A stretch of 64,000 bases of DNA from an uncultured delta proteobacterium (GTDB taxonomy: Bacteria; Desulfobacterota; Desulfobaccia; Desulfobaccales; 0-14-0-80-60-11), in contig CAWETI010000003.1 in the NCBI GenBank assembly GCA_963812015.1, forward strand, positions 1,952,001-2,016,000, read 5' to 3'. Under the pieces are notes generated by a model. That model did not search any database and was not told the origin of the DNA. It saw nothing but the letters and a program-made list of their open reading frames with translations. This document shows positions 42,883 to 53,503 of the stretch, one piece after another. The translations under genes were made by a program, and so were the position numbers. Position 1 is the first letter of the stretch; each line of letters opens with the position of its first letter.

Positions 42883-43066
42883 CCTTGACCGGATAATCTT
42901 CTTTGATTGGCGACATTAGTTTGTTCACCCGGCCATTCTCATAGACCACCACGGTTTCCACCAGGGCTGCCACGTCCTCGGGATCATGGGTTATGAGTAT
43001 GACCGGGATGGTAAACCGCTCTTTAATCTTCAAGAGTGCCTGGCGCATCTTGGCCCGCAGCAGGGT
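42883..43066 (-). pseudogene. C-terminal remnant of a ModC/CysA-type ABC ATPase
   Basis: LLRAKMRQALLKIKERFTIPVILITHDPEDVAALVETVVVYENGRV; N-terminus absent, 3' end runs into the IS. Confidence 0.6.
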
Positions 43067-44729
43067 CCTCTTGGATGAAAATCCCTTGGGCCCCGTCTAA
43101 ACGATACAGTCGATCAACGGCGAGGGCCGGATGGCGCTCATGGGTGAGAATCAAAATGGTTGCGGTACTTTTGCAAGCGTTGATGACCTCGGCAAGGAGT
43201 TTGCGTGCCCTGTCGTCGAGGTTTGACCATGGTTCATCGAGGATCATGATCGGCGATTCTCTCAAGAGCAGCCTGGCAATGCAAATCCGCTGCCTCTCAC
43301 CAGTGCTGGCCCCGATGCCGCGCGGGTCCATTACGGTTTCAATGCCCTGAGGCAAACGCGCCACAAAGTCCTTTAACTGGGCGCGTTCAAGGGCCTGGAA
43401 AATCTGTCGGTCACTCGCGTCCGGCTGCGCGATAAGGAGGTTGCCTCTCAGCGTCTCCTGGAAGATAAAGTAATTCTGGGTGACAACCCCAACTTTCCTC
43501 CGCAGCTCGGTGCGTGAAATCCGCCGGATGTCGATCCCGCCGATGGAGATGACTCCTTCCTGGGGTGCATAAAGGCGGAGGAGCAAATTGATGAGAGTGG
43601 ATTTGCCGCTTCCACTTTCGCCGCCAATGACGGTGACGGCATGGGCGGGAATGAGCAGGTGCGCCCGGTTGTAGAGCTGCCGCCCTCCCGGGTAACCGAA
43701 GGTTAGACTGGATAACTCGATGGCGACGGATTGGCTTGGCAGAGTTTCCGTGGGGTGGCTCTCTTCCGCCTCAGGGGCTTCAGCGAGAAATCCGGCCAGA
43801 TGTCGAATCCCGGTAAATTCGGTCTGCACGGTGGCCACCAACCTGGTGAGTTGGGTGACCGACATCTGCAAGAGGGTGGCATAAAAGAAAAAAAGCAAAA
43901 AAGGCTCGAGACCCATCTTACCGCGGGCGATGAGGTAATAGGCCAGGGCCACCAACCCTAAGCCGCCCAGTTGGGTGAGAAGCTCAATACCGGGGGAAAA
44001 CACCGAGAGCACCGCCCCGGCTCGTACAGAAAGCTTCTTCAGTCCGGTGGTGTGCTTCTGGAAATGTGCCGCTTGCTGCCTCTCGGCAGCCAGTACCTTG
44101 ACGGTGTCGATCCCCTGAATGGTTTCGTCGAAGACCCGCTGTATTTCGCTCCACGTGGCCCGCTGAGCCCTGGCATAAAAACCCATAATTCGGTTGAGGA
44201 CGGTCACGAGTATCGCGGTGATGCCCACGATGCCAAGGGCCGCAAGGGTAAGCGAGGCTGGGCAGAAATAAAAGAGCACGGCCGTCACCGCCAGAGCGGT
44301 GATGAGTTCGCGCCCGACACCGGGAAGAAAATCAGCGAAGAACCGCTGGGCCTGCGCAATATCACTGGTGAACTTGGTGAAAAATTCGCCGGCAGATTGC
44401 TTCTGGAAATAGAACAAGGGCAGGTGGCTTGCCTTATCGAAAAAATCGGTTTGAAGCTGCTTGAGCAGGTTGAAAGAAAAGACGGTGCCAGTATACCCGC
44501 TAATCCCTTGCAGCACTGCGATGGCCAGGAAGATCAGGGCTAGTTGCTCGAGCAAGGGCAGCCCCGAGGTCCAAAGATTGGCGTATTGGCCATTGATGGC
44601 AAGGCTTACCAGCTGTTGATAGTAGCGCGGCTGCAGCGCCATGAGCACCCCGCAGCCGAGCTGCACGATAACTAAGAGCGCCAAAGGGAAGCGATAGCGT
44701 GAGATGACGCCAGTTATCCAGGATCTCAT
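43023..44729 (-). CDS. ABC exporter (TMD plus NBD, no C39 peptidase), putative RiPP exporter
   Basis: N-terminal TM domain, Walker A GESGSGKST, degenerate signature ASTGERQR, MILDEP; ATGA overlap with the upstream rSAM gene. Confidence 0.9.
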   Translation of the reverse strand: MRSWITGVISRYRFPLALLVIVQLGCGVLMALQPRYYQQLVSLAINGQYANLWTSGLPLLEQLALIFLAIAVLQGISGYTGTVFSFNLLKQLQTDFFDKASHLPLFYFQKQSAGEFFTKFTSDIAQAQRFFADFLPGVGRELITALAVTAVLFYFCPASLTLAALGIVGITAILVTVLNRIMGFYARAQRATWSEIQRVFDETIQGIDTVKVLAAERQQAAHFQKHTTGLKKLSVRAGAVLSVFSPGIELLTQLGGLGLVALAYYLIARGKMGLEPFLLFFFYATLLQMSVTQLTRLVATVQTEFTGIRHLAGFLAEAPEAEESHPTETLPSQSVAIELSSLTFGYPGGRQLYNRAHLLIPAHAVTVIGGESGSGKSTLINLLLRLYAPQEGVISIGGIDIRRISRTELRRKVGVVTQNYFIFQETLRGNLLIAQPDASDRQIFQALERAQLKDFVARLPQGIETVMDPRGIGASTGERQRICIARLLLRESPIMILDEPWSNLDDRARKLLAEVINACKSTATILILTHERHPALAVDRLYRLDGAQGIFIQEDPAAGQDAPGTLED

Positions 44730-45835
44730 GGCTCTGGGTTGGCGTGGGACTTTCTGTGCAGGTCTGCCAGGGCTCGATGGATTCTTGCAAATATGAGCTG
44801 ATAATCTTTGCAGAAAGGGTCCTTGGCCATATGGTCACCACAAAACACCAAGGCGTTGAGGGGGCACCCGCCGTGGCAGATTGACCAGTGCATACAGGTG
44901 TGACAGGCTGAAAGCGTCTCGGCTCGCCGCCGAATATCTTCACAAAAAGGTGAAGCCATCAATTCCTGGATTTCACGGTCGTGGATATTACCTAAGGGGT
45001 GGGTCTCAAACCGGCTGCACAGCACGGCATCCCCGGAGGGTTTCACTCCCAGGTGCGACCCGACACAGGTGCCTTGCTGCTGGCATTCGTAAGGCACACC
45101 ACCAAGAATTGCCTCCAGGTACAGGTCCAGAGGCGACACTGTGACCCGCTGGCGTTCCGTACTGGCCCATTCGTCGAATAAGCGGCAAAGAAATGAGCCA
45201 TATTCCCCTGGCTGAAGCAAGGATGGTGTAGAGCTCTCTGGGTTGCTTCCCGGAATCATCGGGTTAACGCGGAAACCGTACCCGAGGCCCTGAAAGTACT
45301 GGTAGATTTCCTGCTCCTGACCCAGGCTCCGCCGGCTAACGACCGCGTTGAACCCCGCTGACACGCCCTGTTCTTCCAAAAGGCGAACTTTCCCCAAAAC
45401 CGCCGCGTGGCTTCCCTGCCCATCTGCACCGATTCGCATCGAGTCGTGCAAGACTTGGGGGCCGTCGAGGCTAATACCAATCTGGAACTCGTGGTCACGG
45501 AAAAAGGCACAAAAGTCATAATCGAGGAGCAGGCTGTTGGTCTGGAGATAATGATGGAATCTCAGGTCCGAGGCAAGCCCGTCAAGAATTTTCATCGCCG
45601 CCCTGAAGAACCCGAGGCCCGCCAGGAGGGGTTCTCCCCCGTGCCAGAGGATATGGATTTCCCTGAACCCATGGCGCTCGGCATAGCGGGCCGTTTTTTC
45701 CAAAGCCGTCTGCAGCGTCTGCCGGCTCATGACGCCGGTCCCGGCACCGTCCGAATAGCAATATCGGCAGCTTAGATTGCAGCGCTTCACCGGCTCCAGG
45801 ATAAGGGTGAAGGCGTCGTTGGCATCAACCGGCAT
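44726..45835 (-). CDS. Radical SAM/SPASM peptide maturase 2
   Basis: CNLSCRYC, WHGGEPLL, SLDGP; SPASM cysteines CQQQGTC...LCSRF...CHTCMHWSICHGGCP...FC. Confidence 0.9.
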   Translation of the reverse strand: MPVDANDAFTLILEPVKRCNLSCRYCYSDGAGTGVMSRQTLQTALEKTARYAERHGFREIHILWHGGEPLLAGLGFFRAAMKILDGLASDLRFHHYLQTNSLLLDYDFCAFFRDHEFQIGISLDGPQVLHDSMRIGADGQGSHAAVLGKVRLLEEQGVSAGFNAVVSRRSLGQEQEIYQYFQGLGYGFRVNPMIPGSNPESSTPSLLQPGEYGSFLCRLFDEWASTERQRVTVSPLDLYLEAILGGVPYECQQQGTCVGSHLGVKPSGDAVLCSRFETHPLGNIHDREIQELMASPFCEDIRRRAETLSACHTCMHWSICHGGCPLNALVFCGDHMAKDPFCKDYQLIFARIHRALADLHRKSHANPEP

Positions 45836-47090
45836 TGGCGAGCTCCCGCCGGACGGCTTCCCGCAGGTGGTGACGGAAAGTCCTCAATCCCTCACAGAAG
45901 TACGTCTCCCCCCGGACCTCATCCCAAGCGGGGGGGAGAACGGCGTCGGCCCAGCGGTTGTCAGGCAGCCCCTCTGAGCGGGCGCGGAGCAGCATAGCAT
46001 TGTATTTCATGCAGGTGAAACACCCCCCGCCACACTGCTGGCCCCATTCACAGCCTCCACAGGCCATGTGTTTCCCGGACCGCCGAATCCTCTGCTTAAT
46101 CTTTTCCCACAGGACGGCCTTGTTCGTTAAAATGGTAGCCAGAGAATCCTGGTGGATATCTCCCAGGGCCGTCTGCTCATCATTCACCCATTGGTCACAG
46201 CTGAACACCCTGCCATTGGGGGCAAAAATAAGGCGCCGGAAGTCGCACCGTTTCTTGTGGAATGGGTCGCCCAGCTTGATTTCCGGCTGCAGGACCATCT
46301 TGACTTCTTGCCGCAATTCTTTGAAATCCACCTGCCCCTCCTGGTCCCAGAACCAGAGATCAAACAATTCGATCAGAAACCGTCCCACTTCTTCCGGCAG
46401 TGGGGCAAGGTCTGACAACCCTGAAACCTCGCCGGCCTCCGGGATCAGGTCCAGCCAGCGCACATCATAGATGTCCAGCTGGACCTCTGCTCTCAATTTC
46501 TTGAAGAATTCAAACAGGTCGAAAGCGCGGTCGATGCTCGCCCGGGTAACCACGGCAATCACTGCCACGCGGTCTGCCATGGCGTGACGGCGGTAATGTT
46601 CAATGCCACGCAGGGTGGCATCAAAAGACCCGGCGCGCGAGCCTGGAGAGCACCGGTACCGATCGTGAATCTCCTTGGGCCCATCGAGGCTGAAGCCCAC
46701 CTGAAATTGATATTCGCCGAGCAATCGAGCCATATCCTCGCTCATGAGGGTCCCGTTGGTCTGAATCCGGTTTTCAAAAGAAAGCTCAGGATACTGAGCC
46801 TCGAGACGGATGATGGCGCGAAAAAAATCGCTGCCCGCCAGCAGGGGCTCGCCGCCGTGCCAGTAGATCTGCATTACCTTGGTGAGAGGATCAACGGTCA
46901 GATTATGGGCGATGACGCGGCGCAGAATCGTCTCAACCGTAGAGAGGGCGATAATACCCCCGGAATGCTCCTGGAAGCAATACCCACACGCCAGGTTGCA
47001 GTTCCGAGTTACCTGGATTTGGGGCACCACCGGTAGACGTTTTTCCCAATCGGGACCGCATGGTTGTATAAGGGAGAGATTTTCCGTCAT
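45825..47090 (-). CDS. Radical SAM/SPASM peptide maturase 1
   Basis: CNLACGYC, YWHGGEPLL, QTNG, FSLDGP; SPASM RC...SCD...CGGCEWGQQCGGGCFTC...FC. Confidence 0.9.
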   Translation of the reverse strand: MTENLSLIQPCGPDWEKRLPVVPQIQVTRNCNLACGYCFQEHSGGIIALSTVETILRRVIAHNLTVDPLTKVMQIYWHGGEPLLAGSDFFRAIIRLEAQYPELSFENRIQTNGTLMSEDMARLLGEYQFQVGFSLDGPKEIHDRYRCSPGSRAGSFDATLRGIEHYRRHAMADRVAVIAVVTRASIDRAFDLFEFFKKLRAEVQLDIYDVRWLDLIPEAGEVSGLSDLAPLPEEVGRFLIELFDLWFWDQEGQVDFKELRQEVKMVLQPEIKLGDPFHKKRCDFRRLIFAPNGRVFSCDQWVNDEQTALGDIHQDSLATILTNKAVLWEKIKQRIRRSGKHMACGGCEWGQQCGGGCFTCMKYNAMLLRARSEGLPDNRWADAVLPPAWDEVRGETYFCEGLRTFRHHLREAVRRELANAG

Positions 47091-47182
47091 GGAAATGCAC
47101 AGGAATTTGAGGCACTGGACGTATTCTACAGTTTGGGAAAGTCTAATGCCAGGTGAGTTGCGTGATCAAAATACTGCACACT

Positions 47183-47289
47183 AGAGGCCTTTCAAAACTC
47201 TGAGCGAAGCGAAGAATCTAAATTTTCAAATACATAGACCTTTCGCTGCGCTCAGGGTGAGAGAAAAAAAGCGGTTTTGCAATGATTGC
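47183..47289. repeat. Palindromic repeat / MITE between precursor and maturases
   Basis: ctgagcgaagcgaagaatcta...tagacctttcgctgcgctcag stem; related copy at 56179-56306. Confidence 0.65.
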
Positions 47290-47294
47290 TAATA

Positions 47295-47480
47295 TCACGT
47301 CCACCAATTGAACCAGTTGTGCCAGTTGGACCAGTTGTGCCAATTCCTCCAGTTGCGCCAATTCCCCCAGTTGCCCCAGAATGGGAATCCTACCCGCCTC
47401 TTCTTTTCCTGGCGGATTTCCTCCAGGAGTTCACGGAGGATCTTGTTCTTAACTTTTGTACCTTGAAGAATCCCAGCCAT
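47295..47480 (-). CDS. Putative RiPP precursor peptide (61 aa) with tandem W-x-N core
   Basis: MAGILQGTKVKNKILRELLEEIRQEKKRRVGFPFWGNWGNWRNWRNWHNWSNWHNWFNWWT; RBS gaggagg; directly upstream of two rSAM/SPASM genes. Confidence 0.88.
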   Translation of the reverse strand: MAGILQGTKVKNKILRELLEEIRQEKKRRVGFPFWGNWGNWRNWRNWHNWSNWHNWFNWWT

Positions 47481-47697
47481 GGCGTCCTCCTCACTATCTC
47501 GATCTCGGCGGAAAGGCATTTCCGTAAGTTAGGTAGTTGATTCCTTCCGGTCCTTTGATAGAGTGCCCCGGGACATTACAGGTCGCTTCCAGTTTTTGCG
47601 GAGCGTTTTTAAAATTGGCATCCGTGGTTATTCCCGGATTAGGCACCGCAATTTTCTTGGCTCTCGATTTTATCGGGTTATTCTTTCTCCCTGGATT

Positions 47698-48162
47698 CTA
47701 TTTAACAATTGGGATACATACCTTTGGCATACATTTCATGCGCCAGCGCTCCATGGCCACCAGATAATTACCTTGCTGGACCGGGCTCATTTGGGCCAAT
47801 TCCTCGTTCAGCTGATTCCTAAAAGAAGCAAACAACTTAGCCTGCGCGGCCGTGTAAGCCTTTACCAGATCTTTGACCTTCGCCTCGTCAGGCTTGGGCG
47901 CTGCTAAGGCGGCCTGCAAATCCTCCCAAGATTTCTTCGATTCGTCGACGATATCTCCGCGCATTGACGAATATTTTGCTTCCAACGCTTCAACCGCCTT
48001 TTCTTTATCCGGGGCAACCTTCAATTCTTTGAGCGTCTGCGCTTTATAGTCCTTGAGCTGTTTCCCCAGCTCCTCATCCGTCTGACCCAGGGCGGGAACC
48101 ACCAGCAGAAAGCTCAAGATGGTGGAGAGTGCCCCCAGTTTGAAAATGAGCTTACCTTTCAT
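47698..48162 (-). CDS. Secreted Spy/CpxP/ZraP-like helical periplasmic protein
   Basis: Signal peptide ending VPALG; all-helical; PDEAKVKDLV and MSPVQQ (LTxxQ-like); aaggagg RBS. Confidence 0.65.
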   Translation of the reverse strand: MKGKLIFKLGALSTILSFLLVVPALGQTDEELGKQLKDYKAQTLKELKVAPDKEKAVEALEAKYSSMRGDIVDESKKSWEDLQAALAAPKPDEAKVKDLVKAYTAAQAKLFASFRNQLNEELAQMSPVQQGNYLVAMERWRMKCMPKVCIPIVK

Positions 48163-48932
48163 TTTATCCTCCTTTTGAAAAGATGCTGGGCATATAGTGT
48201 GCTGCACTTAGCGTACTTGAAAGGTTGCTGGTGGCAGTGGCACCTGCTTTATCCTGACGCCCTGCCTTGCCCTTACCCCGCCGCCAATCCTTGCGGTCCG
48301 TCTGTTCCCTTCCAGGTAGGATATCTATTTAAAGCACAAACTTGGTAAAGCCGTCAAGTAAATTATGGGGAAATTTCTTGCATCAGGGGCGAGAGTGTAA
48401 TCCCGGACTTTGGGTTTCCAGGGGAAAAATCTTCAGGATAGAGCGGTTGACGTGGCAGACGGTTTGGCGAATAGTGGACGCCAGGAGGATTAGGTTCGGG
48501 GCCGTCAGGCAGGGGCAGACAATTTGCCGCGGGCAATTGCAATGAATGTCTTGACCCTTCATCTAGCGAAGTTAAGAACTTCGCATATCCAGATCATCTC
48601 TAGCCCGAGATTATGCAGCAACCTTGGCCTCCGCAATCCAAAGAAGGTTTTTGGGACCTCTTGCCCAGAAAACATCCCCCAAAGTTTCTGTTCTTGAAGC
48701 CGAATTCTCTCGTCGACCCCATGATAGCAAAAGTTTCCTTGAAAAAATCGATAGCCATATCTGTCTCCCAGGGAAGCGATTTCTGTACAAGTTTTGTACA
48801 AAATGCCTTCCCTGGATAAATTATAATATATTGTTATTATTTGTAAATATCCGGGGGGAAATGGGGCTTTCGAATGGCTAAAAAGGGCCCCTGAAGTGCA
48901 GCAGCCATCAACCTCTGGGCAGGGACTCTTTT

Positions 48933-50532: not shown

Positions 50533-52167
50533 GTGTATATGAATAATAGTTCATATCCCGGTGGTCGACGCCAACGAGACCGACCGGAAGCAGCCATTCA
50601 GGTGGAGAGCGAGGGCACCATAGCAGAACAATACAGCCTCTTCAGGAAAATATTCGACTACCTGCCCGATCCGGTGCTGGTGCTGAACCTTGATTATATC
50701 GTCGAGGAAGTGAATCAAACCTTCCTCAGCCGTTTCCAGAAAAATGTTGAGGAGGTGATCGGCAAACGCTGTTACGAAGTCTGTCGTCAGTTGGAGGGGC
50801 CCTGCGACCAGCAGGGATTGGTCTGCCCTCTGCCGCAAGTCATCGAAAAGTGCAAGACTAGCTGGGTCATGCAGTGCTATCCGGGTCCCGACGGCGCGAT
50901 GCGCTACGAGGAGATCACCATGTCGCCCTTGTGTCCGCCGGAAGGTAACAGGAAAAGGGTGATCGAGGTCATTAAGGACGTCACTGCCCGCCAGCAACTG
51001 CGAGGCGCCCTGCACAACTCTGAGGCAAAGACCCTCCAGCTTCTCAGGCAGGCCACCCAGGGGAAGGCCTTCCTGGAGACGATTGTCAACGGCATTGAGG
51101 ATCACATGATGGTGATCGACCTCGATTACCGTATCATTGAGGTCAACCGGGCTTTGCTCGAGATGGTGGGGTTAAAACGGGAAGACGTGGTGGGCAAACA
51201 CTGTTATGAGGTATCGCACCATCTGGAGAAGCCGTGCGCCAGTCCTGATCACCCGTGCCCCTTGAAAGACGCGGTGGCCACCCGTAAGGCGGCCTCCGTC
51301 ACCCATGTGCACTTCGACAAGGACAACCGGGAACATTACATTCACGTGGTCTGTCACCCATTGTTTGACGAGCACGGAGTGGTCCACCGAGTGATTGACT
51401 TGTCCCGGGACATCACCGAGGAAATCGCTGATCGCACCCGGATGCTGCACGATGATAAAATGACTTCTTTGGGGAAATTGTCCGCCAGCGTGGTGCATGA
51501 AATCAACAATCCGCTGACCGGCATCCTCAACTTCACCAAATTGATGCAACGCACGCTGAAAAATTGGGCCCCCCGTGAGGCCGGATTGGGGCAGATACAC
51601 AATTATCTCAAGATGATTTATAATGAAACGTCTCGGGTCAGCAAAACGGTGTCCAACCTGCTGGCCTTTTCCCGGAAGACCAAGCCGGAATTCAAACCGA
51701 TGGATCTCAATGGCCTGCTGGCCGAAACGGTATCACTAACCGAGTACCAGATGCGGCTGCAGGGCATCACGGTGGAACGCCAATTGGCTTCGGATCTGCT
51801 CCCGGTCATGGGAGATCAGGGATGGATGAAACAAGCTTTATTGAATCTCGTGTTGAATGCCATAGACGCCATGCCGAAGGGTGGAACTCTGACCTTGACG
51901 ACCAACAATTCCCGAGGCCGACAGGTGGTGATGAAGGTTGCCGACACGGGAGTGGGTATCCCCAAGGATTATTTTTCCCAGATATTTGAACCCTTCTATA
52001 CCACCAAAAAGGCCGGCTCCGGGGTGGGGCTGGGGCTCGCCGTGGTATACGGAATCGTCCGGGACCACAAGGGCAGCATCAAAGTGGATAGCGTCGTGGG
52101 GCAGGGGACCTCATTCACTATCAGTCTGCCAGCCTTTAAACCGGGAGAAGAGCGTGCTGCCACATAA
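50533..52167 (+). CDS. Cytoplasmic PAS-PAS sensor histidine kinase (NtrB-like)
   Basis: Two Cys-containing PAS domains (GKRCYE..C..CP; GKHCYE..C..CP), VHEINNPL, NAIDAM, GVGLGL; start uncertain. Confidence 0.92.
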   Translation: MYMNNSSYPGGRRQRDRPEAAIQVESEGTIAEQYSLFRKIFDYLPDPVLVLNLDYIVEEVNQTFLSRFQKNVEEVIGKRCYEVCRQLEGPCDQQGLVCPLPQVIEKCKTSWVMQCYPGPDGAMRYEEITMSPLCPPEGNRKRVIEVIKDVTARQQLRGALHNSEAKTLQLLRQATQGKAFLETIVNGIEDHMMVIDLDYRIIEVNRALLEMVGLKREDVVGKHCYEVSHHLEKPCASPDHPCPLKDAVATRKAASVTHVHFDKDNREHYIHVVCHPLFDEHGVVHRVIDLSRDITEEIADRTRMLHDDKMTSLGKLSASVVHEINNPLTGILNFTKLMQRTLKNWAPREAGLGQIHNYLKMIYNETSRVSKTVSNLLAFSRKTKPEFKPMDLNGLLAETVSLTEYQMRLQGITVERQLASDLLPVMGDQGWMKQALLNLVLNAIDAMPKGGTLTLTTNNSRGRQVVMKVADTGVGIPKDYFSQIFEPFYTTKKAGSGVGLGLAVVYGIVRDHKGSIKVDSVVGQGTSFTISLPAFKPGEERAAT

Positions 52168-53503
52168 AAAGATTAAAATCCTGGTGGTGGATGACGAGCT
52201 CAGCATCCGCGAATCTTTATGCGGCTGGCTGCAGCAGGACGGCTATCAGGTGGAAACCGCGGCCGATGGGCCGGCGGCTCTATCCAGGACTCAGGACCAA
52301 CACTATGACATCATGCTCATCGATGTCAAAATGCCCGAGATGGACGGCCTCACCCTGCTCAAGAAATTGAAGGAAGGCGATCCCGACACGACCATAGTTA
52401 TGATGACGGCCCACGGCGATATCCATGACGCGGTGGAGGCCATGAAGCTGGGCGCCTATGATTATCTGCTCAAGCCCTTCGAGCTGGAGGAACTGAGCTT
52501 TACCATCGAGAAGCTGGTCAAGATGCAGACCCTGGCGATGGAGAATCTGATCTTAAAAGACCGGGTGGCGTCCATGACGCGCTTTGAAAACCTGGTGGGC
52601 CTGTCTCCGTCCATGCTCAAGCTGTTCGAGGCCATTGTCGATGTGGCCAAAAGCGATGCCACCGTCTTGATCACCGGGGAAACCGGCACCGGCAAAGAAC
52701 TGGTGGCCCGGGCCATTCATGCACAGAGTCCGCGGTGTTATGCACCCTTTATTGCCATCAACTGCGGGGCCTTCACGGAACACCTCCTGGAAAGCGAACT
52801 CTTCGGTCATGAAAAAGGGGCCTTCACGGACGCCAAATATACCAAAAAAGGCCGGCTGGAAATGGCGCATGCCGGGACCCTCTTCCTCGATGAAGTGGGT
52901 GACATCTCCATGAAGATGCAGATTGATCTGCTCAGGGTCCTGGAGACCCGGGAATTCACCCGGGTGGGAGGAACCGTGTCGTTGCATAGCGACTTTCGGG
53001 TCATCGCCGCCACCAACCAGGACCTCCAGGAAGCCATTCGGGCAAAAACCTTTCGGCAGGATTTATTTTACCGCCTGAACGTCATCCACATCCAGGTGCC
53101 GCCCCTACGGGAACGGCCGGAAGATATCCCGCTGCTGGCCCAGCATTTCATGAGACGCTATGCCACCGAGACCAACAAAAAAATTGACTCCATCCATCCG
53201 GAGGCCCTGGAAGCGATGCGTCGGTATCCCTGGCCGGGGAATGTCAGGGAACTGGAAAACGCCATAGAACGGGCGGTGGTGGTGGGAAAAGGCCGTCAGA
53301 TCAAACTGAGCGACCTGCCCTTTGTTATGCCTGCCGGCGGGGCGGCAGAAGTGGGAGAGTTATCCCTGGAGGAGATGGAGCGCCAACACATCGCCCGGAT
53401 ACTGACCGCAGAGGGCGGCAACTTGTCCAACGTCGCCAAGGTTCTCCGCATCAACCGCTCCACGCTCTACCATAAAATTAAGAAATATGGCCTGGCGCCT
53501 TAA
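52154..53503 (+). CDS. Sigma-54-dependent response regulator (AtoC/NtrC-like)
   Basis: REC domain, [30 protein letters not shown] start overlaps the kinase stop. Confidence 0.93.
   Translation: MLPHKKIKILVVDDELSIRESLCGWLQQDGYQVETAADGPAALSRTQDQHYDIMLIDVKMPEMDGLTLLKKLKEGDPDTTIVMMTAHGDIHDAVEAMKLGAYDYLLKPFELEELSFTIEKLVKMQTLAMENLILKDRVASMTRFENLVGLSPSMLKLFEAIVDVAKSDATVLITGETGTGKELVARAIHAQSPRCYAPFIAINCGAFTEHLLESELFGHEKGAFTDAKYTKKGRLEMAHAGTLFLDEVGDISMKMQIDLLRVLETREFTRVGGTVSLHSDFRVIAATNQDLQEAIRAKTFRQDLFYRLNVIHIQVPPLRERPEDIPLLAQHFMRRYATETNKKIDSIHPEALEAMRRYPWPGNVRELENAIERAVVVGKGRQIKLSDLPFVMPAGGAAEVGELSLEEMERQHIARILTAEGGNLSNVAKVLRINRSTLYHKIKKYGLAP

Follow-up and report, generated by a model that had tools for sequence, protein, structure and literature searches.

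The W-x-N precursor gene and its neighbors

We analyzed a 64,000-nucleotide (nt) stretch of DNA from an uncultured delta proteobacterium (contig CAWETI010000003.1 of assembly GCA_963812015.1, positions 1,952,001 to 2,016,000 of the forward strand), hereafter the window. The subject of this study is a small gene at 47295-47480 on its minus strand. The gene encodes a 61-amino-acid (aa) peptide, MAGILQGTKVKNKILRELLEEIRQEKKRRVGFPFWGNWGNWRNWRNWHNWSNWHNWFNWWT, in which a helical leader is followed by FPF, eight W-x-N units, WWT and the stop codon. We propose that it is the precursor of a peptide made by the ribosome and modified after translation (RiPP), and refer to it as the precursor. It heads a minus-strand cassette in the order precursor, rSAM1, rSAM2 and ABC exporter, where rSAM1 and rSAM2 are radical S-adenosylmethionine (SAM) enzymes (Table 1).

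Table 1. Features of the precursor gene and its cassette, with positions in the window.
Feature	Position	Strand	Basis or remark
CpxP/Spy-like protein	47698..48207	-	Pfam Metal_resist PF13801, 30.1 bits (cut-off 29.2); directly upstream of the precursor
Ribosome binding site (RBS) GAGGAGG	47486..47492	-	Read directly; purine-rich pre-start stretch retained in relatives (upstream reading EED/EEA/REG)
Leader peptide, residues 1-31, with helix motif VLRELLEEIRQE and basic end KKRRVG	47388..47480	-	Homologue alignment, dN/dS
Junction unit F-P-F, same register as the W-x-N units	47379..47387	-	Conservation among 69 unique peptides
Eight contiguous W-x-N units (WGN WGN WRN WRN WHN WSN WHN WFN), presumed ring-forming motifs	47307..47378	-	Sequence
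Tail W-W-T and TGA stop	47295..47306	-	Sequence
Structured spacer between precursor and rSAM1, with long hairpin and promoter-like stretch	47091..47294	-	RNA fold, alignment
rSAM1, radical SAM/SPASM maturase, 421 aa, clade-specific C-terminal extension	45825..47090	-	Pfam Radical_SAM and SPASM
rSAM2, second radical SAM/SPASM maturase, 369 aa; 11-nt overlap with rSAM1	44726..45835	-	Pfam Radical_SAM and SPASM
ABC exporter, permease and ATPase; 4-nt overlap with rSAM2	43023..44729	-	Pfam ABC_membrane and ABC_tran only

The minus-strand codons of 47295-47387 are TTC CCA TTC for the junction unit, TGG GGC AAC, TGG GGG AAT, TGG CGC AAC, TGG AGG AAT, TGG CAC AAC, TGG TCC AAC, TGG CAC AAC and TGG TTC AAT for the eight units, and TGG TGG ACG TGA for the tail and stop. 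The original prediction, made by a model from the letters of this DNA, had described a repeat with invariant W and N, a middle residue (X) running G,G,R,R,H,S,H,F, and synonymous codon differences between units (GGC/GGG, CGC/AGG, AAC/AAT). All of these match the codon reading. The strong gaggagg RBS that it had noted lies 5 nt ahead of the ATG at 47480, and the basic KKRR that it had seen ahead of the core is present as residues 26-29. An alternative start (ATG 47519) would give a 74-aa reading; this start is not conserved among relatives.

A DNA pattern for three consecutive W-x-N units gave 6 overlapping matches in the 3.96-Mb genome, all within the precursor gene (reversed control, 0). Of 401 genomes sampled from the phylum, 3 had the four-unit pattern, and all 3 belong to the window's own family (control matches, 0). 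Such a repeat is far more than chance would give. No NCBIfam or Pfam model matched the precursor (NCBIfam: 0 families at E ≤ 0.01). The plus strand is likewise open across the repeat (47286-47540, 84 aa). This open reading frame (ORF) was ruled out as a real gene by the substitution pattern, in which wobble changes fall at minus-strand third positions.

Selection and length variation in the W-x-N array

We chose ORFs by the leader helix motif only, with no condition on W or N. This leader-picked set held 86 ORFs in 85 of 99 sources, which correspond to 69 unique peptides. We observed that 476 of the 515 in-frame core triplets were W-x-N; 12 were W-x-other, 2 were x-x-N and 25 were other triplets, mostly behind register-shifting inserts. 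In 18 sources, all 135 units had the form TGG-NNN-AAY (AAC 122, AAT 13; locus L010, which has a register shift, was omitted). Synonymous divergence (pS) at the Asn codon was similar to that of the leader (0.32 and 0.29, respectively; 36 distinct close-clade DNA sequences with regular cores). The ratio of nonsynonymous to synonymous change (dN/dS) in these 36 sequences was 0.29 for the leader and about 0.48 for the X position. The set was pre-filtered for regular cores, so that its zero nonsynonymous change at N holds by construction; the window lay outside this filter. X was represented by 16 different residues and was never P, C, E or K in regular cores.

Judged from these alignments, W and N are under purifying selection and X is much freer. 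We regard protein-level selection on W and N as real because W-x-N dominates the leader-picked cores, the Asn codons change synonymously and X is diverse. The original prediction had proposed such selection, and the aligned homologous precursors agree with it: the W/N register was largely kept while unit number ranged from 4 to 9.

The same prediction had stated that the repeat was not produced by DNA slippage, and this part was not supported. Tandem Repeats Finder described the array better at period 18 (84% matches, score 80) than at period 9 (72%). Units 1 and 3 (GGC AAC/CGC AAC) and units 2 and 4 (GGG AAT/AGG AAT) pair as a duplicated two-unit block. Because of this pairing, the differing synonymous codons of neighboring units look like a legacy of two-unit block duplication with later point changes from G to R. 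Among 67 regular unique cores, 8 was the commonest of the 4-9 unit numbers. Identical adjacent 9-nt units were seen in relatives (44/241), and one contig from an RNA library had a 9-nt deletion inside the array. Slippage is indicated by these sequences, with expansion and contraction giving length variation and selection maintaining the grammar. The array would lengthen and shorten via in-frame 9- or 18-nt duplication and deletion, and purifying selection would then retain W and N and leave X comparatively free.

We also assessed the residues around the core. KKRR had been proposed as a possible mark of the leader cleavage site, and this was not borne out as the key site: four consecutive K/R residues occurred in just 17 of the 69 unique peptides. 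The conserved residues are instead those of the junction consensus R-[VC]-[AGS]-F-P-[FYH]-W-G-N. Counted back from the first W, these are R at −6 (67/69), V (50) or C (13) at −5, A (55), G (9) or S (5) at −4, F at −3 (65/69), P at −2 (67/69) and F (36), Y (28) or H (4) at −1 (68/69). The F-P-[FYH] junction unit was missing in loci L060 and L067, the two loci without an adjacent rSAM2. Of the 67 regular unique cores, 57 end in WWT; more distant clades have WWN, HNGWGNG or other endings.

Irregular cores made up 25 of 92 unique cores, many with basic, His or Gly residues inserted at unit 3-4 (HHH, ARRRH, GRRR, GGGG). W-x-D was present in four cores, and the L060 core reads WHK YHN WRN WFN WWT. 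Given the W-x-D, WHK, YHN and HHH variants, position 1 accepts other aromatics and position 3 accepts D, K and T. These natural variants fit the aromatic-x-Cβ-donor grammar of triceptides, a class of cross-linked RiPPs to which we return below.

Three further sequences extend this picture. Locus L053 has two tandem precursor genes with differing X residues (42-227 and 305-517) before one rSAM1. Locus L074 has a partial precursor at the contig start with a Cys-containing irregular core, WRNWGNCPYANVWANAGCWANVGGCAWCNQWVNGQ, in which W-x-N units keep one register of three. The peptide P0048 (89 aa, E = 1) has an unrelated signal-peptide-like N-terminus and ends in WGNWGNWNNWSNWHNWNNWNNWGNWRNF. 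Judging by this peptide, more than one type of leader seems to carry W-x-N arrays.

Cassette conservation and the two radical SAM enzymes

A protein search returned 46 homologous peptides of 43-72 aa (E ≤ 1.4e-11), and P0048 as one further, doubtful match. A genome scan gave 18 loci, 17 of them in metagenome-assembled genomes (MAGs) labelled Desulfobaccales, Syntrophobacterales, Desulfobacterales, delta proteobacterium, Deltaproteobacteria or Proteobacteria. The 18th, L020, is a 967-bp contig labelled Maribacter, a taxon label that is doubtful for so short a MAG contig. Its precursor is divergent (core ...WGNWINWGNWINWRNWGNWYNGW) and adjoins a fragment of rSAM1 that is 48% identical. A metagenome scan returned 80 loci, 67 with a Trp-periodic ORF. 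The other 13 comprised 7 loci with <350 nt upstream, 4 unrelated enzymes, the short-core precursor of L060, and L100. The unrelated enzymes (L098, L099, L102 and L106; radical SAM genes at 24-29% identity) were rejected as family loci. L100 is an rSAM1 fragment, and no precursor was found upstream of it.

The cassette recurred in the 18 genome loci and about 75 metagenome loci, and its architecture was kept down to ~46-50% rSAM1 identity. A W-x-N precursor ORF was present in 19/19 genome sources, window included. The CpxP-like gene, rSAM1 and rSAM2 were all present by tblastn in 17/17 genome loci with room, and the exporter was found in 15/15 genome loci that extend far enough. Among metagenome loci with room, rSAM2 followed rSAM1 in 40/42 (exceptions L060 and L067) and the ABC exporter followed rSAM2 in 34/34. 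In L067, the exporter comes directly after rSAM1 with no rSAM2 between. The original prediction had raised a second enzyme, and a second conserved maturase does exist in rSAM2. The Kdp operon, ArsR and NapH-like genes that neighbor the cassette in the window were absent from the flanks of all 18 genome loci and were ruled out as system members. Their absence from the relatives' flanks indicates that the linkage is specific to the cassette.

Orthologues of rSAM1 (E ≤ 1e-60) were detected in 19 of 83 genomes of the order, all of them in a single family (18/68 there versus 0/14 in the other family). The distribution was patchy inside genera (e.g., 7/17 and 7/15), which marks the cassette as accessory. 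DNA and RNA runs holding parts of the window stretch came from sediment, wetland and soil metagenomes.

Upstream partners differed by clade. In metagenome loci with ≥1100 nt upstream, the CpxP-like gene preceded the precursor in 39/39 at rSAM1 identity ≥77% (the close clade) and in 0/18 below. The CpxP-like protein is probably periplasmic, with a hydrophobic, signal-peptide-like N-terminus judged by eye. In an intermediate clade, a large nSTAND1 NTPase with TPR repeats lies just upstream of the precursor on the same strand (L061:1-2103, L063:2-2110, L065:3-1928 and L070:2-2119), and a WD40-repeat protein takes its place in L067 (2-2038). All five of these upstream genes lack their 5' end, which lies beyond the flank limit. 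A third clade has a conserved secreted protein without a Pfam family ahead of the precursor (L076:1420-2106, L073:3-719, L078:1072-1590 and L079:1564-2145). This protein shows 45-53% identity between the more distant pairs and 91% between L073 and L076, and is unrelated to the CpxP-like protein. The rSAM2 orthologue of L065 (3723-4823) has one in-frame stop and is either a pseudogene or an assembly error.

The gene overlaps in the window suggest translational coupling of rSAM1, rSAM2 and the exporter. Pfam detected no protease or peptidase domain in the cassette, the exporter included. The spacer behind the precursor holds a hairpin at ~47200-47255 (RNA fold −54.2 kcal/mol, z = −3.3; 0/200 shuffles fold as well), and a different, G/C-rich hairpin element occupies the same position in most related loci. 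Such a hairpin may set the precursor:enzyme ratio, either by attenuation or as an mRNA-stability element. The last ~100 nt of the spacer are conserved (alignment of 12 spacers). A conserved promoter-like CTGGCA-18-TAGAAT stretch is at 47123-47152, ahead of rSAM1; by eye it can also be read as a sigma-54-like TGGCAT-N5-TTTCC. A sigma-54 activator gene is at 51938-53503 (NtrC-type and sigma-54 readings by eye).

We compared both enzymes with curated families. The rSAM1 CX3CX2C motif and SPASM auxiliary-cluster cysteines were conserved across clades, and the rSAM2 cluster cysteines were invariant or nearly so in 15 sequences. The two enzymes are paralogues (~30% identical). The best NCBIfam scores of rSAM2 were DynA (257.1 bits, cut-off 450) and anSME (230.6, cut-off 349.45); those of rSAM1 were anSME (180.9) and DynA (179), both below cut-off. 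Curated cyclophane synthases scored lower against rSAM1 and rSAM2, respectively: GrrM/OscB (TIGR04261) 119.6 and 134.1 (cut-off 310), YhhB 108.4 and 137.8 (445), FxsB 92.9 and 122.5 (370), AmcB 100.6 and 128.1 (425) and XyeB 78.3 and 88.1 (450). DarE (NF038005) gave 115.2 and 92.5 (650). Almost all top family matches of both enzymes were peptide cross-linkers or anSME. By sequence, the closest structures solved are those of anSME (4K36-4K39; E = 2e-29 for rSAM1, 6e-33 for rSAM2) and of ChlB, a triceptide synthase.

Among 1.84 billion representative proteins, three relatives of rSAM1 were nearly full-length (53, 46 and 41% identity; 463-358 bits) and some ten matches were shorter and apparently partial; scores then dropped to ≤164 bits. 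The generic enzymes at this level align only to rSAM1 residues ~25-358, without the C-terminal extension. By this comparison, rSAM1 is a member of a small, isolated clade. A further radical SAM paralogue of the genome (443 aa, 31% identity to rSAM1) immediately precedes a sulfatase gene with a CTAGRS motif (L002, contig C2, 836454-840434). From its sequence and position, this paralogue is the genome's real anaerobic sulfatase maturase.

Proposed maturation and comparison with known systems

With moderate confidence, we assign the cassette to an uncharacterized two-maturase variant of triceptide-type RiPPs, made up of a precursor, a Trp-to-Asn-Cβ ring per unit, two radical SAM/SPASM enzymes and an exporter. 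By analogy with published enzymes, one such ring in each W-x-N unit is the best-supported reading of the core. The helical leader would present the core to rSAM1 and rSAM2. An enzyme would abstract hydrogen from Asn Cβ and join this carbon to the indole of the Trp two residues earlier, forming a three-residue cyclophane, and the product would carry 8-9 back-to-back rings. The better candidate for ring formation is rSAM1, because it alone accompanies W-x-N cores in L060 and L067. A further modification may come from rSAM2, with the F-P-[FYH] junction unit as one possible site. These two loci keep W-x-N without rSAM2 and without F-P-[FYH], which suggests that rSAM1 makes the rings and that rSAM2 acts elsewhere, perhaps at the junction. 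The ABC transporter would export the product, and a protease encoded outside the cassette would remove the leader. The gene, its conservation, selection pattern, cassette and enzyme class are read from sequence; the type and positions of the cross-links, how the enzymes share the work, export, leader cleavage and biological role are inferred.

Several points weigh against this assignment. The cross-link chemistry is carried over from other systems, and both enzymes score under the curated cut-offs of all cyclophane-forming families. The rings could differ in size or bond type because DynA, the best match of rSAM2, links Trp and Asn at i+3 and also forms a His-Tyr C-N bond. The role of rSAM2 rests on two loci, and L078 has rSAM2 but no junction Pro. 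Several counts come from ORFs chosen by the W-x-N pattern, and only the leader-picked count is free of such bias. The metagenome scan was seeded with an rSAM1 alignment, by which loci with rSAM2 alone are not findable. Translation of the precursor is predicted from sequence only. Contigs from 4/4 RNA libraries cover the operon, including the precursor, at ≥85% likeness, and a 191-nt contig spans 47265-47440; these contigs are a weak hint of operon expression and no proof of transcription. Depth was present in 27/30 bins for library X15 and in 30/30 each for X16, X17 and X18. The empty X15 bins are meaningless and genes cannot be ranked by depth, some of which, over the core, may stem from unrelated CCAGTT-like repeats.

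We weighed three other explanations. A RiPP with another topology is rather unlikely; this would involve ether or C-N bonds (as with DarE or DynA), four-residue rings, Trp(i)-Trp(i+3) links, or two bonds that fuse the rings into a ladder. It would account for two paralogous maturases that are both conserved with intact cluster cysteines, and it draws on the bonds that DynA makes (i+3 Trp-Asn and C-N) and on the ether and C-C bonds of DarE (PMC9055067). The zero-spacer array also offers the W-x-x-W and N-W adjacencies that the original prediction had pointed out as sites for a second enzyme. However, Asn is always i+2 from Trp and never i+3, which leaves no acceptor for a DynA-like i+3 link. 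The position-3 substitutions D, K, T and H are typical Cβ donors of three-residue rings, and in L060 and L067 the W-x-N cores are kept with rSAM1 only.

We consider it improbable that the enzymes carry out non-cross-linking chemistry, such as epimerization or another side-chain change, with W and N conserved for product activity (e.g., membrane or target binding). SPASM/twitch radical SAM enzymes do include peptide epimerases (PMC13012085), and neither enzyme here passes any family cut-off. The top family matches, almost all cross-linkers or anSME, argue for cross-linking instead, and a cross-link motif predicts both the strict aromatic-x-donor period and the N-to-D/K substitutions. Very improbable is an ORF that is no substrate of the neighboring enzymes; it would encode a small Trp-rich protein that stays unmodified, or be a tandem repeat that is non-coding and open by chance. 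That both strands are open across the repeat and that translation is a prediction would be compatible with such an ORF. The leader dN/dS, wobble changes at minus-strand third positions (AAC/AAT, GGN, ACN, CCN), the conserved RBS and start, and the strict co-occurrence with rSAM1 across three clades with different neighboring genes all speak against it.

A more specific form of the two-maturase triceptide assignment, which we think unlikely, is that each maturase adds a different bond to the uninterrupted (W-x-N)8-9 array, giving a continuous, ladder-like polycyclic rod of ~27-30 residues. For example, one enzyme would form the Trp-to-Asn-Cβ ring of each unit, and the other would bridge neighboring units or the F-P-[FYH] junction. 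Such a topology is not known among RiPPs, and a rod of this kind might mimic a rigid β-strand at outer-membrane targets. The clade partners (the secreted CpxP-like protein, the secreted protein without a family and the STAND NTPase) may fit a role at such targets.

If the proposed ring chemistry is true, the product would be the densest natural three-residue cyclophane array in the literature searched, with 8-9 rings and no spacer, and the two enzymes that make it would belong to no curated family. The natural mutational series (16 residues at X, 4-9 units, W-x-D/WHK/YHN, single-enzyme loci) could define the substrate rules of the enzymes, and the cassette offers a test case for two paralogous radical SAM maturases sharing one repetitive substrate. 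A long poly-cyclophane strand from anaerobic sediment bacteria would be a reasonable candidate for new bioactivity because β-strand-locking cyclophanes include the BamA-targeting darobactin, dynobactin and xenorceptides (10.1101/2024.12.16.628070). For genome evolution, the array presents in-frame repeat expansion that supplies variation and protein-level selection that fixes two of every three residues.

This peptide family was not found in the literature searched, and the 2022 triceptide landscape network (~3,900 pathways) may already contain the enzymes. The core strings were absent from the readable supplements of PMC11499958, PMC10288494 and PMC9055067. For Desulfobacca, the accessible part of a 2014 anaerobe mining paper mentions sactipeptide-type and lasso-type clusters and not a W-x-N cassette.

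We compared the cassette with described systems. The anSME family (TIGR03942) provides the nearest solved structure and a top NCBIfam match, yet rSAM1 and rSAM2 score below its cut-off, the cassette has no sulfatase and the genome's own anSME lies elsewhere. Darobactin and the daropeptides share a Trp-rich core, a SPASM radical SAM maturase (DarE) and ABC-type export, and one enzyme makes both bond types. Unlike the array here, darobactin is a fused bicyclic heptapeptide (WNWSKSF) without a repeat, and the DarE cut-off is not reached. The WprA peptide resembles the precursor in carrying several copies of one three-residue Trp motif, each cyclized uniformly by a radical SAM enzyme: WprB cyclizes three repeated WPR motifs (PMC11851443). 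Those motifs are spaced and link Trp C5 to Arg Cγ, and WprB has a twitch domain rather than SPASM, requires the helper WprC and belongs to another enzyme lineage (WgkB-like group).

Dynobactin (NF041298, maturase DynA; DynE in papers) scores highest of the named families against rSAM2 and second highest against rSAM1, and both enzymes fall short of its 450-bit cut-off. Its enzyme also forms a Trp-to-Asn-Cβ C-C bond, joining Trp C6 to Asn Cβ at i+3, in addition to the His-Tyr C-N bond (PMC11002830). The dynobactin core (WNSNVHSYRF) differs in having these i+3 Trp-Asn and His-Tyr rings, no repeat array and one enzyme. In the core of the precursor, Asn is always i+2 from Trp and there is no H-x-Y unit.

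The triceptides (XncB/XyeB xenorceptides; OscB/GrrM) share aromatic-x-x core motifs and an adjacent SPASM radical SAM maturase with the cassette. XncB connects Trp C6 with the Cβ of an Arg or Asn, and OscB connects Trp C7 with that of an Asn or Asp, in both cases between residues i and i+2 (PMC11002830), which matches the W-x-N pairing here. Xenorceptide A2 contains a WVN ring, such rings lock a β-strand that binds BamA, and triceptide motifs may abut, as in FAR-WSK (bioRxiv 10.1101/2024.12.16.628070). In the precursor, eight W-x-N units, FPF and WWT stand in one aromatic(1)-x(2)-x(3) register that is kept in relatives, and both adjacent enzymes carry SPASM. The curated cyclophane-synthase families (XyeB, GrrM/OscB, FxsB, YhhB, AmcB) are not reached by any score, and the GRRM/OscAB system is further set apart by a precursor that matches no NCBIfam model. 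Unlike known triceptides, the cassette has two maturases, 8-9 uninterrupted motifs of identical type, a different leader and no GG-type protease-transporter. Overall, the sequence comparisons suggest that this system follows triceptide-like logic and is marked by an isolated clade of enzymes, a pair of maturases and an array of unusual length without spacers.

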